Source: Candidatus Heimdallarchaeota archaeon
GTDB lineage: Archaea; Asgardarchaeota; Heimdallarchaeia; Hodarchaeales; Hodarchaeaceae
Reading direction: 5' to 3'
Assembly: GCA_019057635.1 (NCBI GenBank)
Contig: DXJL01000206.1
Span: 11,112 to 35,111, forward strand
Length of the DNA: 24,000 nucleotides
Of the stretch, positions 949 to 11,760 are shown piece by piece. The notes under the pieces are model-generated. The model was given only the letters and a program-made list of their open reading frames with translations, was not told the DNA's origin and did not search any database. Made by a program: the position numbers and the translations under genes. How positions within the stretch are numbered: position 1 is the first letter of the stretch; each line of letters begins with the position of its first letter.

Positions 949-1089
949 TATATCGGTGTTTAAAATTGAGTGCGTTCAATTTCTTTTAGAGAAAAAGGAA
1001 GATGATCCTTCTATTGATGAAATTAAGTGATCTAACAAAATAAATGGCAGTATAAAAGAAGTAATGCTAGTGAATAAAGAACAGCAGAG

Positions 1090-1164
1090 TGGACCGGACG
1101 GGATTTGAACCCGTGACCTCCTGATTGCCAACCAGGCGCAACTACCAGGCTGTGCCACCGGCCC
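1090..1164 (-). tRNA. tRNA-Ala (anticodon GGC), no encoded CCA, no intron
   Basis: The reverse complement GGGCCGGTGGCACAGCCTGGTAGTTGCGCCTGGTTGGCAATCAGGAGGTCACGGGTTCAAATCCCGTCCGGTCCA folds as a 75-nt cloverleaf. It has a 7-bp acceptor stem with the Ala identity pair G3:U70. The anticodon stem is CCTGG/TCAGG with loop TTGGCAA. The T arm is ACGGG-TTCAAAT-CCCGT. Confidence 0.93.
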
Positions 1165-4461: not shown

Positions 4462-6072
4462 TTATAAGGGTTTTCGCATATAAGGTCCAATCTGGCTAAA
4501 CCCTAATTTACGATAATAATCACGTACACCAAGACCGGATGTTACTAGGATTTTTCGATAATCTCGATCACGTGCGATTTCTTCTGCTTTTGCAATTAGC
4601 TTTGCCCCAAGTCCCCGATGTTGCCACTCTAGCTTTTTTGGTTCTTGACCAATTCCTACTAATTGACCATAAACATGAAGCTCTCGGATAATCACTGCAG
4701 ATTGATCTTTAATTTCAGGCCGATAAGATGCACTTGATGGTTCCCTAACTCGTAAAAATCCAAATAAAGTCTTTTTATCTTCAGTATCAAAGGATATGAA
4801 ATGTTCTATACCACCAGACGCTGGATATTCATATGTGTGTAACTTTCTTTCCTTTTCTGACCATGACTGATCCTTCCGAAGAATCTGATGTCCAACTTCT
4901 CTACATCGGATACAGGAACATACCCCTCCCTTGTTTCTAAGATGTTTATCTGCTAGTTCTCTGAGATTCCCATAACGCACTCCATCCGTGATTAAATAAG
5001 CAGGGATATCTCTTTGTACTCGTTGGATACGAACAAATTCTGGTGTGATTTCTTTAATTTTGGATATAACCTCAACCACTTTGTCTGAATTGTATGGTAC
5101 GTATTCTTTTTTCTGCCATAAATTGAACAATGGAGTATTTTGAAGTACTAATGTGGGGTAGATTTTTACAGCATCTGGAACATAGCGAGGATCTGTGTAC
5201 ATAGTTTTAAACATCTGTACGTCTTCTTCAGGAGTCTGGAATAGGTTAGGCATTAGATGTAAAGTGATTTTTAGACCTCCGTCCCGAGCAAAGCGAATTG
5301 CTCTTTCTACATCTTGAATTGTATGATGACGTTGCACGTGTTTTAAGACGTCATCCGATAATGTTTGTACTCCGATCTCGACCCACGTTCCCCCTAGTTC
5401 TAGAATTCTATTTACATGAGTTTTCTTGCAATAATCAGGGCGAGTTTCGAAGGTTATCCCGACATTACGTCTGAGACTTCGGTCAGAATAATCCTTAGCC
5501 ATCTGTAATGATGAGGATGATTCGCCAGTTATTCCATCAAGAGATTCTCTTATGTAATTCTCTTGATATTCTTCTGGGTTAGCTAAGAAGGTACCTCCCA
5601 TAATTACTAAGTGAACTTTATCAAGTGGATGTCCAATGGCTCTAAGCTGATTTAATCTAGCATTAACTTGCTTTTTTGGATCGAAATCATTTTGAATACC
5701 GCGCATTGCCGCTGGTTCTCTTCCAGTGTAAGATTTAGGGGCTCCTGGAACATCAGGACAGTAGATACATTTACCCGGGCAAGGTGACGGTTTTGTCATT
5801 AGAGCTACAACAGCAATACCACTTATAGTTCTAACTTTACGAACTCGCAGAAAAATTCGTAAAGATTCTTTATCGGAATTAGTCAAAATATCTGTCGATT
5901 CAACAAATTCTATAATTTCTGAATTTCGAACGAATCTATCTAAATTGTATTCCTTTGCCATTTTCCTCTTTAAACTTTCTAGCTTGGAATGCTTTAACCC
6001 AAGATCATTCACGAGAGCGACCACAATTGCTTCAAGAGCTTGATTCAATTTATCGGTTAAATTTTGAGCCAT
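4462..6072 (-). CDS. elp3: Elp3 homologue: tRNA U34 modification radical-SAM / GNAT acetyltransferase
   Basis: 536 aa with the radical-SAM cluster region SGIAVVALMTKPSPCPGKCIYCP and a TIM-barrel core. The C-terminus is a GNAT domain (QHRGLGAKLIAKAEEIA). The architecture is diagnostic for Elp3. Confidence 0.92.
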   Translation of the reverse strand: MAQNLTDKLNQALEAIVVALVNDLGLKHSKLESLKRKMAKEYNLDRFVRNSEIIEFVESTDILTNSDKESLRIFLRVRKVRTISGIAVVALMTKPSPCPGKCIYCPDVPGAPKSYTGREPAAMRGIQNDFDPKKQVNARLNQLRAIGHPLDKVHLVIMGGTFLANPEEYQENYIRESLDGITGESSSSLQMAKDYSDRSLRRNVGITFETRPDYCKKTHVNRILELGGTWVEIGVQTLSDDVLKHVQRHHTIQDVERAIRFARDGGLKITLHLMPNLFQTPEEDVQMFKTMYTDPRYVPDAVKIYPTLVLQNTPLFNLWQKKEYVPYNSDKVVEVISKIKEITPEFVRIQRVQRDIPAYLITDGVRYGNLRELADKHLRNKGGVCSCIRCREVGHQILRKDQSWSEKERKLHTYEYPASGGIEHFISFDTEDKKTLFGFLRVREPSSASYRPEIKDQSAVIIRELHVYGQLVGIGQEPKKLEWQHRGLGAKLIAKAEEIARDRDYRKILVTSGLGVRDYYRKLGFSQIGPYMRKPL

Positions 6073-6093
6073 TTGATAGATTCCCGATCAATC

Positions 6094-7131
6094 TTAGCGT
6101 GAAAACACTGCAAGTGAGAGTAGTAATGCCATAATTAACAGAAGAGTATGTACCAGTAATAATAGTTGTACATTCCTTTTTTCAGTAAGTTTAAAGTAGT
6201 AAGGAAGGATCCAATATGCCGTGTAAGGACAAGGTGCTACAATATTATTATCTTCATCTATTGTAGCAATCTTTTTTGTTTGTTGAGTTTTTAGGTATAA
6301 GATGAATAATGCAAAATTGATGAAATGGAGACCGAATGCACCAATTGCTAGTCGATCCATATTTCCGATGATCAGTGCCACTATTATTCCTGTTCCTAAT
6401 GTTAAGGTACCTGTATCTCCTATTAAGATTTTTGCAGGATACCAATTGAACAAAAGTAACACAATAAATCCTCCTAATAATGCCGAGGTAAACATTGCAA
6501 CTACTGGATCATCAACAAGAAAAGAAATAATTAAAATGGCAACCAAGGATATAACCCCATTTCCGACCTCGAGTCCATTAAAACCTGCCAACATATTGAA
6601 GGAGTTAAAGGCAAAATTAATGGCCAGTGGAATAATAATTAAGCTGTATAAGTTCAAACCACCAAGTGTCAAATCAATGTTTCCTAATATGCCCAAATTG
6701 ATACTACTATTTCCTACTTTCAACGCCATTAAAGGTAAGGCTGGTAAGAATCCTAATAGAATTTTATCTTTCCATTTTATTTTGAATACGTCATCAAGAA
6801 AACCAATTAAACCAGCGATTACTACACTCATCAACCCAGCAAGTAGGGGCACAAATGACTGCTCCTCCGTTGCTTCAGTAAAAGGGTAAACCTGTAGCTC
6901 AGTCATATACGCCCACCCGAAGATAAGAAGTAAAATTGTGATAATAAATGCTATCAGAGGCGCTAAACCTCCAGCTTCTGCAATTATGGGAGTATTTTTT
7001 TTGTGTGCATCAACAGTTGTTATACCTCGTTTGAGAGAAACATCTTTTACCCAAGGTACAAGAAATCTCGTTATTACTGCTGAAATCAGGAATGCAAATA
7101 CTGTAGTAGGAATAATTACGGCGGATAGCAT
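6094..7131 (-). CDS. Glycosyltransferase family 4 polyprenyl-phosphate HexNAc-1-phosphate transferase (AglH/WecA/MraY-like)
   Basis: 345-aa polytopic membrane protein. It has GFLDDVFKIKWKDK (the DDxxK motif) and NSFNMLAGFNGLEVG (the NxxNxxDGxxGL-type motif). It ends 21 nt before the elp3 start, so co-transcription is likely. Confidence 0.88.
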   Translation of the reverse strand: MLSAVIIPTTVFAFLISAVITRFLVPWVKDVSLKRGITTVDAHKKNTPIIAEAGGLAPLIAFIITILLLIFGWAYMTELQVYPFTEATEEQSFVPLLAGLMSVVIAGLIGFLDDVFKIKWKDKILLGFLPALPLMALKVGNSSINLGILGNIDLTLGGLNLYSLIIIPLAINFAFNSFNMLAGFNGLEVGNGVISLVAILIISFLVDDPVVAMFTSALLGGFIVLLLFNWYPAKILIGDTGTLTLGTGIIVALIIGNMDRLAIGAFGLHFINFALFILYLKTQQTKKIATIDEDNNIVAPCPYTAYWILPYYFKLTEKRNVQLLLLVHTLLLIMALLLSLAVFSR

Positions 7132-9632: not shown

Positions 9633-10532
9633 TTATGTTTGAATTTTTAACGAGAAATCTAAAGATCTTACTGAATGAGTCAAAGCACCAATTGAAATTA
9701 TATCTATTCCTTTTATCAAGTATTTCTCGATATTTTCTGTTTTTATTCCTCCACTGATTTCAATAAGGGGTTTCCTCTCAGTAATCCGATCATTCATAAA
9801 GGAAATTGCTTGTTGAATTTTTTCTGGAGTAAAATTATCAAGCATAATCACATCAGGGTGTAAATTTAGCACATTTTTAAATTCTTCAAGTGTTTCTACT
9901 TCGATATCAATTTTTTTACTGAATGATGATAGCTGTTGATATTTTGTAAGAATTTTTGCAATTGATTCTCCCTCAAATATCGCTAAGTGGTTTTCTTTTA
10001 TTAAAATTTCATCAGAGAGACTCCAACGATGTGTGTCGCCGCCACCAACTTTAACTGCATATTTTTCGAAATATCTGAAGCCAGGAGTCGTTTTACGAGT
10101 TGATGCAATTCTTAAGGACGCATCAGAGGTTGCGACCATGTTTACTAGTCGTTTAGTTTGTGTAGTAATACCCGATAATCGCATAATGATATTTAATATT
10201 GTCCGTTCAACCATGAGTATCATTTTACTACTTCCTCCAATAGTAAGAACGATATCATTCTGAACTACCTGATCTCCGTCATGTTTAATTGTTTTTACTT
10301 CTAAACCGACGGCTTCTAGCAGAATAAGCGCGAATTCAAGGCCACAAACATATCCTTGTTCTTTTGCAATAAGATTGGCTTGGACAATTCTATCTGGTGT
10401 TATATCAGTGGTAACATCCCCAAATTCAAGATCTTCTTGGAGAAATTGCAGTAATTTTTTTTCTAGTAATTTAGGAGGAAAATACGCCAAGTTTTTCACC
10501 TTTATGAAGCTGATTAGTGCTTTAAAATTCAA
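9633..10532 (-). CDS. nadC: Nicotinate-nucleotide pyrophosphorylase (carboxylating), quinolinate phosphoribosyltransferase
   Basis: 299 aa with EDLEFGDVTT near the N-terminus, STRKTTPGFR and LIKENH. These match NadC signature regions. The start codon is TTG (10530-10532 read caa on the plus strand), and there is no nearby in-frame ATG. Confidence 0.9.
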   Translation of the reverse strand: MNFKALISFIKVKNLAYFPPKLLEKKLLQFLQEDLEFGDVTTDITPDRIVQANLIAKEQGYVCGLEFALILLEAVGLEVKTIKHDGDQVVQNDIVLTIGGSSKMILMVERTILNIIMRLSGITTQTKRLVNMVATSDASLRIASTRKTTPGFRYFEKYAVKVGGGDTHRWSLSDEILIKENHLAIFEGESIAKILTKYQQLSSFSKKIDIEVETLEEFKNVLNLHPDVIMLDNFTPEKIQQAISFMNDRITERKPLIEISGGIKTENIEKYLIKGIDIISIGALTHSVRSLDFSLKIQT

Positions 10533-10610
10533 AAAGGGCTTCTGAATTTATTATGATATAAATTTTCGATTGATTTGTTTTCTAACATTCACGAGAAATA
10601 TCAATTGAAG

Positions 10611-10847
10611 CATGACTAAATTTGTCAGACAACGCAGTAAAACCGCGTTCTGGACAGGATGAGTCACACATCCGCTATCCGGAAAAAACCAATTCAAATG
10701 GTGAATTTGTTTTCGAGGGACTACTTGTTTCTATGGGGTTGGCGTTCTCTCTTGATTCCTCGAATTTCTGAAACCACTGGCCTTACCCCCCTCGCCTTTG
10801 ACGGGTAACTCGTCTAACGTAGTTACGAGGAAGGTACTCCAGGAGTC
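10611..10847 (-). repeat. Copy 1 of a ~237-nt GC-enriched structured repeat (inverted relative to copy 2 at 20801-21037)
   Basis: The reverse complement aligns with 20801-21037 at about 85% identity by hand alignment (about 36 differences, including two 1-nt indels). Blocks of 20-38 nt are perfectly conserved. Strand is given relative to copy 2 only. Confidence 0.85.
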
Positions 10848-10972
10848 TTGAGCTCTATTCTGTTCATCACCTCCAATTCTTGAGGAATTTAGGGGAGGAG
10901 TCCTTTTAAGGTTTTCAGACAGAGAGTGAGGTGAAAATGAGAATATGAGTTTGTCGGACAAATTTGACCATG
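10611..10972. mobile_element. MITE-like non-autonomous element: 362 bp bounded by imperfect 22-bp terminal inverted repeats
   Basis: The left end is CATGACTAAATTTGTCAGACAA (10611-10632). The reverse complement of the right end (10951-10972) is CATGGTCAAATTTGTCCGACAA, matching 18/22. Each end holds a small palindrome, TTGTC-N-GACAA. No transposase is present, and no clear target-site duplication was seen. Confidence 0.45.
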
Positions 10973-11073
10973 TTTTTGTTATCATTGGAGGAGAAAGGAT
11001 GATAAACTTTTTATTTAGAGAATTTTTACGAAAATACCAAAGAAATACCAATTTCTAAGCTCGAGGATTTAAA

Positions 11074-11760
11074 TTGAAAGTTTCATGTTTAATATCAGGA
11101 GGGAAAGACTCAGTTTTTGCATTATGGTGCGCCCTTCACCAATTTGAGGTTATTTCGCTTATAAATATTCAAGCTAGAACCTCTGATAGCTTTCTTTTTC
11201 ACATCCCGAACACCCAGTACGTATCCTTAATTGCAGAAATGTTGGGTTTACCACTCCTTACAGTAAAAACTGCTTTCTCTAGTGTGAATGAAGAAACATC
11301 AATGTTAAAGCAAATATTCATTGATTCTGAGGCAGAAGCCATAATTACTGGAGGTATTAGATCAGAATTTCAAAGGTACAAGTTCAATTATGCGGCTTTG
11401 CAAGCTAATGTGAAGTGTTTTAATCCACTTTGGCGTCTTACACCTAGAACTCTTATGGATGAACTGCTAACAAACCATTTCCATATTATTCTTGTTTCTG
11501 TTTCTGCAATGGGTTTCGGGAAAGACCTCTTAGGTAAGAAGCTAACGCCTAAGAAATTAAATATGCTTAGGGCCTCAAATACGGTTTCAGAATTAGCAAC
11601 GACAGGAGAAGGAGGAGAATATGAATCATTTGTATTGAATGCTCCATTCTTTCCCTCCCGTATTATTGTGGATAAAGCCAAAGTACATTGGAACGAATTC
11701 AGGGAGGAAGGGCACTTCGAGATAATTAAAGCATATTTGGAACTTAAAAGACCTAGATGA
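11074..11760 (+). CDS. Dph6-like diphthine-ammonia ligase / MJ0570-family ATP-binding (PP-loop) protein
   Basis: The N-terminus KVSCLISGGKDS is a PP-loop SGGKDS motif, and TTGEGGEYESFVLNAPFF matches the family C-terminal motif. The TTG start is preceded by GAGGA at 6-nt spacing. Confidence 0.85.
   Translation: MKVSCLISGGKDSVFALWCALHQFEVISLINIQARTSDSFLFHIPNTQYVSLIAEMLGLPLLTVKTAFSSVNEETSMLKQIFIDSEAEAIITGGIRSEFQRYKFNYAALQANVKCFNPLWRLTPRTLMDELLTNHFHIILVSVSAMGFGKDLLGKKLTPKKLNMLRASNTVSELATTGEGGEYESFVLNAPFFPSRIIVDKAKVHWNEFREEGHFEIIKAYLELKRPR

Follow-up and report, generated by a model that had tools for sequence, protein, structure and literature searches.

Insertion sequences (IS) of the IS200/IS605 type integrate 3' of a specific motif of 4-5 nt and do so without duplicating their target. 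Terminal inverted repeats are absent from both the IS200/IS605 and the IS607 elements (PMC4810608; PMC6188088), and the 3' ends of archaeal IS1341-type tnpB genes have been found to yield sense non-coding RNAs (PMC4615843). The last segment of a tnpB element encodes the scaffold of an ωRNA, which ends at the right-end (RE) boundary and is followed by the adjacent flank as guide; TnpB uses this RNA to cut the vacated donor site, whereby the transposon is restored (10.1101/2023.03.14.532601). Besides, the elements known as PATEs arise from IS605-type elements through core deletion (PMC3119063) and "often encode ωRNAs" on which TnpB acts in trans (10.1101/2023.03.14.532601). Elements with symmetrical ends have been described among the TnpBs linked to IS630 (PMC10691335), and Fanzors are known to have terminal repeats within the guide scaffold (PMC10711439).

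The repeat considered here occurs twice in a stretch of 24,000 nucleotides from a Candidatus Heimdallarchaeota archaeon (the window), and very probably represents the conserved portion of a non-autonomous element derived from a TnpB-encoding IS of the Heimdall/Hodarchaeales archaea. The complete element of ~360 nt is a MITE in form and resembles the PATEs in origin.

Extent and dissemination of the repeat

An earlier note on the window had drawn attention to a non-coding, GC-enriched element of ~237 nt that was present as an inverted pair of ~85% identity, with perfectly conserved blocks and four named neighbour genes. Most of this description was borne out, since copy 1 and copy 2 aligned at 86.3% identity over 233 nt (blastn, E = 3.5e-75), with perfect blocks of up to 38 nt in the pairwise alignment, the GC content was 44-47% in the repeat and 29-34% in the flanks, and the four genes were recovered by Pfam (Table 1). 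A repeat search of the window resolved the pair into an inverted-repeat arm of 165 nt (10678-10842 / 20805-20969, 85%) and an adjoining arm of 95 nt (10594-10688 / 20960-21054, 83%), the remaining inverted repeats in the window being all of 32 nt or less, while in the pairwise alignment the homology extended from a CATG at 10611 / 21037 and faded at about 10847 / 20801.

Table 1. Location of the element copies, their parts and the surrounding genes in the window.
Feature	Position	Strand	Basis and remarks
Copy 1, complete non-autonomous element, 362 nt	10611..10972	- (sense)	Full-length matches to at least 15 copies; left end (LE) at 10972, RE at 10611; CATG at both ends
RE terminal inverted repeat	10611..10632	-	Plus strand reads CATGACTAAATTTGTCAGACAA
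LE terminal inverted repeat	10951..10972	-	Minus strand reads CATGGTCAAATTTGTCCGACAA
tnpB-derived block	10778..10830	-	Codons ~211-229, LVTTSDGLLVKGG; sequence of L019 5700-5650
TATA-like box	10902..10911	-	Sense CCTTAAAAGG; its homologue in the full IS is CTTATAAGAG, upstream of tnpB
Predicted guide segment	10591..10610	-	20 nt of flank directly 3' of RE, sense strand
ωRNA-like module, copy 1 (last 130 nt)	10611..10740	-	RNAalifold, pair counts, covariance model R1 (134.6 bits)
Copy 2, truncated element	20801..21037	+ (sense)	RE at 21037; common to B3_Heim L008 5095-5327
ωRNA-like module, copy 2, degraded	20907..21037	+	27/31 pairs; R1 106.9 bits
106-aa ORF	10731..11051	-	Starts in the flank, reads through LE into the element
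nadC	9633-10532	-	Pfam
Dph6-like	11074-11760	+	Pfam
Ras/Rab-like	20022-20600	-	Pfam
TrmB-like	21364-23655	+	Pfam
tRNA-Ala (GGC)	1089-1164	-	Sole RNA gene recognised in the window by Rfam or ARAGORN

When one genome per species was searched for a 21-mer out of the longest conserved block, 22 loci were recovered, of which 20 belonged to the MAG 'Candidatus Heimdallarchaeota archaeon B3_Heim' and two to Hodarchaeota MAGs (loci are denoted by L numbers). The same 21-mer had no matches among viral contigs, and the metagenome scan added one further locus only, L028, which is the 3' end of a tnpB. Counting the copies, as the earlier note had recommended, upheld its proposal of a repeat family: the 21-mer scan together with blastn and alignment across related MAGs gave at least 26 copies beyond the window pair, with unique flanks. 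That the pair merely reflects a segmental duplication, or a chance similarity of two AT-rich spacers without any family, might be suspected from the presence of only two copies in 24 kb; however, this is refuted by the E value of the pairwise match and by the further copies with defined ends, which leave it a practically negligible probability.

With an extended blastn query, most copies aligned across window positions 10611-10974, beyond the 237 nt, and the ends of the element were fixed by a multiple alignment that included the flanks (loci L001-L023 and the window), from which the extent of copy 1 follows. The layout is flank, CATG ATCATTTTTGTCCGACAA … TTGTCTGACAAATTTAGTCATG, flank, with unrelated flanks at every copy. 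The length given in the earlier note therefore proved too short, since copy 1 runs on to 10972 and copy 2 is a shortened version. Complete short copies measure 357-367 nt, at least 15 of them having unique flanks. A repeat search identified the terminal inverted repeat of copy 1 at 10608-10632 / 10951-10975 (22-25 nt), and a 22-bp inverted repeat, CATGAYYAWWTTTGTCNGACAA, is found at LE and RE of all complete copies, including a diverged IS in L032. The element is thus short, non-coding, bounded by terminal inverted repeats and dispersed in many copies, as is characteristic of MITEs.

Several MAG contigs start or end inside the element (L003 1-126, L013 1-126, L004 1-109, L011 33-394, and L018 6770-7016), indicating that the repeat family breaks assemblies. 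Gene callers predict ORFs of 100-125 aa that span the element (e.g., L023 2552-2929). In addition, a lone RE fragment of ~85-100 nt, 97% identical to the RE of copy 1, was observed at L005 3353-3454, with the rest of the element absent upstream.

The parental insertion sequence and its right-end module

Elements of 1424 nt with the same ends as the short ones were found at L015, L019, and L021, each with a single ORF of 423-437 aa that matches the Pfam families OrfB_IS605 (PF01385) and Cas12f1-like_TNB (PF07282). The ORF also matched the NCBIfam model guided_TnpB (NF040570, RNA-guided endonuclease TnpB family) with 223.9 bits, the cut-off being 100, and its closest solved relatives are Cas12f and TnpB. 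Homologues of 55-95% identity, named InsQ/TnpB by their sources, are common in Hodarchaeales MAGs. TnpB is the only gene of these three elements, as in the IS1341 group of IS200/IS605, and it has been lost from the window copies; no tnpB gene is present in the window itself.

Three parts of this IS are recognisable in the short elements. Its last 75-80 nt, which cover the final ~30 codons of tnpB, are 85-97% identical to theirs; a 53-nt piece from inside tnpB (IS positions 806-858) has been kept as the tnpB-derived block at 85% identity (blastn); and their left end matches a TATA-like CTTA(T/A)AAG box and the start region of tnpB, with a 44-nt deletion. These matches establish the sense strand, minus for copy 1 and plus for copy 2, and indicate that internal deletion of the IS gave rise to the short element. 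The earlier note had been unable to place the repeat in any IS family and had named a match to an IS terminus as evidence against its reading, and it is on this point that it has to be corrected, because the ends as well as internal segments are common to the 1.4-kb TnpB-encoding IS. The Rfam comparison that it had also suggested left the repeat without a match: at the gathering threshold, only the tRNA-Ala (1090-1164) was reported in the whole window, and in E-value mode around copy 1 the best match was no better than E = 1.7.

This IS encodes no recognised transposase, and no transposase gene was found beside tnpB at L015, L019, L021 or the homologues P0180 and P0179. The TnpB contains the motifs GIDLG and NADYN (RuvC-III). 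In a provisional alignment of the L019 protein (5053-6327, minus strand) to ISDra2 TnpB, LVIGYN at residues ~283-290 takes the position of the RuvC-II glutamate. With IGYN at this position, nuclease activity of this TnpB is not assured, and the reading is only a lead. The IGYN/NADYN protein possibly resembles the 'derived/rearranged' catalytic-site classes (PMC10691335).

Two further arrangements were observed among the relatives. A full, diverged tnpB IS with the same inverted-repeat ends occupies L032 4886-6295 (B3_Heim NJBF01000009.1), ~3 kb beyond the TrmB-like gene and just past the orthologous right end of the window, and its TnpB is 70% identical to that of L019. At L002 5277-5958, a short element (5509-5868) is nested in a degenerate tnpB, its CATG lying between codons ~351 and 352.

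The 106-aa ORF across copy 1 has no Pfam match, its frame is broken in other subfamilies and it shows no codon-position bias where it is open; it is most likely spurious, which agrees with the earlier description of the element as non-coding. Copies of subfamily B (L003 2517-2878, L009 1020-1380, L012 3131-3497 and 6165-6527, L016 953-1317, L022 5682-6046, and L023 2541-2899) have a sense frame free of stops for 105-121 codons, with remnants of TnpB peptides (…LVTSLDELPVKG…NLPDSGCVTHPVQN…). A protein-coding reading of this frame, as an in-frame mini-TnpB remnant, was rejected because the variable sites are even over the codon positions (30/31/31), and the frame is therefore probably not a gene.

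An alignment of the last ~130 nt of the sense strand from 25 copies, including the three full ISs, was folded by RNAalifold into 31 pairs in four helices. Helix 2 is a hairpin whose sequence varies between subfamilies with its pairing retained, and helices 3 and 4 form an imperfect palindrome, GTGACT…TGTCCAGAAC-apical stem-GTTGTCTGACA…AGTCAT, in which the apical stem covaries (GCGG…CTGC, CTCTT…AAGAG, CTATT…AATAG, CTAGT…ACTAG). Double-sided changes amounted to 59, against 20.9±3.4 in column shuffles (0/500 shuffles reached 59) and 9-20 when the partners were slid. Paired cells of the 31-pair structure reached 95.4% on the sense strand and dropped to 83.8% on the antisense strand, indicating that the fold belongs to the tnpB-sense strand; 89 cells are G·U, and three pairs are nearly invariant G·U. 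Since the short elements are free of coding constraint, their compensatory changes imply selection on the fold itself. In copy 1, 30 of the 31 consensus pairs are intact. Single-sequence folding of both strands of both copies was uninformative (z-scores -0.3 to -2.2).

The covariance model built on this module (R1) detected the two copies in the window and none further. Beyond the window, it matched more divergent tnpB genes (70-74% amino acid identity; L028, L032, and L033/L037) at their 3' ends, and at L015, L019, L021, L028, L032, and L033 the matches overlap the 3' end of tnpB and stop at RE; the window copies are homologous to the IS segment that carries this 3' end (blastn). Two features that characterise ωRNAs were observed, namely a conserved structure with covariation (RNAalifold and pair counts against shuffles) and a location at the 3' terminus of tnpB, at RE, where the scaffold comes to an end at the transposon boundary. 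Moreover, the tnpB-derived block contains a hairpin, GTAACT(N10)AGTTAC, that is invariant in 21 copies and has a covarying outer stem; the segment between this hairpin and the RE module aligns poorly across subfamilies.

The fold might alternatively act as DNA, with the RE palindrome and the inverted repeats serving for recognition by a transposase and the short elements making no guide RNA. The long imperfect palindrome is situated within 57 nt of RE, the inverted repeats are the most conserved parts of the element, and IS200/IS605 ends are known to function as hairpins of single-stranded DNA (PMC4810608). However, the end is 60-115 nt away from helix 1 and the covarying helix 2, LE has no counterpart of the fold, the 89 G·U cells, the three nearly invariant G·U pairs and the strand-asymmetric pairing are at odds with a DNA structure, and the module is located exactly where ωRNAs map in tnpB elements. 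We consider a role as DNA without a guide RNA unlikely, and a DNA role and an RNA role of the fold are not mutually exclusive. For the reading as an ωRNA-like module, the layout described for TnpB guide RNAs (10.1101/2023.03.14.532601) would make the 20 nt of flank next to the RE of copy 1 the predicted guide, provided that an ωRNA is made, and the TATA-like box would be a putative promoter for the sense transcript.

Insertion histories of the two copies

The window is 94.8% identical to the B3_Heim contig NJBF01000009.1 over 8 kb. Orthologous nadC-Dph6 spacers, fetched through Dph6 homologues, showed that the insertion site of copy 1 is empty, with a single CATG, in three metagenomic contigs of close relatives whose Dph6 is at least 90% identical (L024 1-30, L025 20-50, and L026 130-160), where the sequence reads …ATCAATTGAAG-CATG-TTTTTGTTATC… or a variant of it. 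Copy 1 is accordingly an insertion polymorphism and a recent insertion of 358 nt net. In B3_Heim, whose flanking spacer is 95-97% identical to that of the window, the same CATG carries an element of another subfamily (~68% identity) in the opposite, plus orientation (L023 2541-2899). The nadC-Dph6 CATG has been hit at least twice independently and looks like a target hot spot. The 4-6 nt after the CATG (window 10973-10978) differ between the spacers (TTTTTG, AATTTG, AGCTTG), which are otherwise 95-97% identical; recurrent insertion, excision or cleavage may have left this footprint, or it may be due to chance.

Empty sites hold one CATG and filled sites have it at both ends, which fits either a 4-bp duplication or an RE that ends in CATG. 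In none of the 18 complete copies is the LE-side CATG preceded by T (P ≈ 2e-4 relative to the local T frequency), the base there being A, C or G, whereas RE invariably reads TCATG; the base after RE is A or G in 16 of the 18. An asymmetric target, (A/C)CATG(A/G), is suggested by these preferences, and the target motif may be distinguishable from the one encoded by the transposon.

Copy 2 has a different history. It lacks the LE third, including the TATA-like box, and so does its counterpart in B3_Heim. Identity to the L008 orthologue is 87.3% in the element as compared with 96.0% and 95.1% in the two adjacent spacers (Fisher p = 1e-4), the divergence of the element being three times that of the flanks, and copy 2 and the orthologue each retain 27 of the 31 pairs, with four different pairs broken in each. 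With this excess of divergence over the spacers around it and its loss of base pairs, copy 2 is decaying; it is an older, left-end-deleted and immobile copy. Of the earlier preference for a structured RNA over decaying junk, the structured module has stood, through the covariation of the last ~115 nt, and the exclusion of junk has not. In more distant relatives (L029-L031), a CATG at the place of copy 2 is followed by ~190 nt that are missing in the window lineage and show no relation to the element (blastn E >= 2). A deletion subsequent to the insertion would have removed the LE third together with spacer sequence next to it, the spacers being too diverged for certainty.

The family is confined to intergenic positions, and a crude ORF analysis placed about 13 of the 20 distinct sites in spacers of divergent genes; outside divergent spacers, insertion showed no orientation bias with respect to the neighbour genes. 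Such locations, the conserved fold and the direction of the TATA-like box of copy 1, which points towards nadC, would suit a host-domesticated small RNA or cis-regulatory scaffold controlling nadC/Dph6 and the Rab/TrmB-like genes. However, three close relatives lack any insertion at the nadC-Dph6 site and B3_Heim has another, reversed subfamily there, which argues against a required promoter role, copy 2 outpaces its flanks in divergence and loses pairs, and the copies are flanked by unrelated genes and have no Rfam match. A location in divergent spacers is expected from insertion tolerance and is thus no evidence of promoter function; the position in divergent regions emphasised by the earlier note was confirmed for those ~13 of 20 sites, and the promoter role does not follow from it. 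Host regulation is largely refuted for the two copies of the window and is very improbable as an explanation of the element. Both window copies are selfish DNA and not host regulatory RNAs.

Proposed mobility and relation to described systems

We propose that the element arose by internal deletion of the 1.4-kb tnpB-only IS. From this parent it has retained the two 22-bp terminal inverted repeats, which end in CATG, the left end together with the TATA-like box of tnpB, and the last ~115 nt. The short element would then represent a promoter and ωRNA cassette between transposon ends, a view derived from the position of the module, its layout, which is that of TnpB guide RNAs, and the literature on each step. 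Transcription from the left-end promoter may yield an ωRNA, which the TnpB of full-length copies would use in trans to re-cut the vacated site formed by CATG and flank, and recombination at the cut would restore the element. By analogy with described TnpB systems, this use of the ωRNA in trans seems to us somewhat more probable than not. Mobilisation would need a transposase supplied in trans. A distinction between TAM and TEM has been described, to which the motif difference between LE and RE can be compared: with no T before the CATG of LE and TCATG at RE, the nuclease could tell an empty from a filled site.

Like the PATEs (Haloquadratum HqIRS, PMC3119063; Geobacillus PATE-like elements, 10.1101/2023.03.14.532601), the element is short, protein-less and multi-copy, derives from a tnpB-bearing IS by core deletion with both ends and the segment at RE for an ωRNA-like scaffold kept, and would depend on TnpB and a transposase in trans. 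Unlike PATEs, which by definition lack terminal inverted repeats and have palindromes near both ends, it is bounded by 22-bp inverted repeats, has CATG at either end and possesses a palindrome only at RE. The 1.4-kb parent shares with the IS1341 group (PMC4615843; PMC8612924) tnpB as the only gene, a structured module that extends over the 3' end of tnpB up to the RE boundary, and insertion specific for a 4-nt motif. It differs in its symmetrical ends, the absence of an LE hairpin, a RuvC-III motif NADYN and a RuvC-II motif IGYN (the latter by the provisional ISDra2 alignment). The ends typical of IS200/IS605, without inverted repeats and with subterminal hairpins at both LE and RE, were not found, as the left-end alignment contains no conserved hairpin and the long palindrome is confined to RE.

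Classical MITEs normally share only terminal bases with their transposase-encoding partner. The element resembles classical DDE MITEs in its size of ~360 bp, terminal inverted repeats, dispersed intergenic location and presence/absence polymorphism, and differs from them in that over half of it is homologous to the parental IS, which has no recognised transposase. In addition, the parent resembles the IS630-linked TnpBs (PMC10691335) and Fanzor1/Fanzor2* (PMC10711439), where an RNA-guided nuclease gene lies within symmetrical ends and the terminal repeat, possibly with a duplicated target, is part of the guide-RNA scaffold. Unlike these, it has no linked DDE transposase and its target is CATG and not TA, the comparison being one of features and not of phylogeny.

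Tentatively, and with a probability well below even, the parent could be assigned to an undescribed type of archaeal TnpB transposon, which would be bounded by 22-bp terminal inverted repeats and a palindromic CATG present in duplicate, and moved by a transposase other than the Y1 TnpA or the IS607 serine recombinase. Such a type may have the terminal repeat inside the guide-RNA scaffold, as otherwise reported for IS630-linked TnpBs and Fanzor, and the absence of T before the CATG of LE, as opposed to the invariant T at RE, would be a discrimination preventing self-cleavage.

The present results strike one candidate for a new structured RNA off the list and explain it as a mobile element. For the annotation of Asgard genomes, they imply that such repeats break assemblies and create spurious ORFs. 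They also provide a TnpB/ωRNA family defined by its ends, its CATG target, natural empty sites and a covariance model, in a lineage of high evolutionary interest. The inverted-repeat ends of this family raise the testable question of which enzyme moves tnpB-only elements in the Heimdall/Hodarchaeales archaea.
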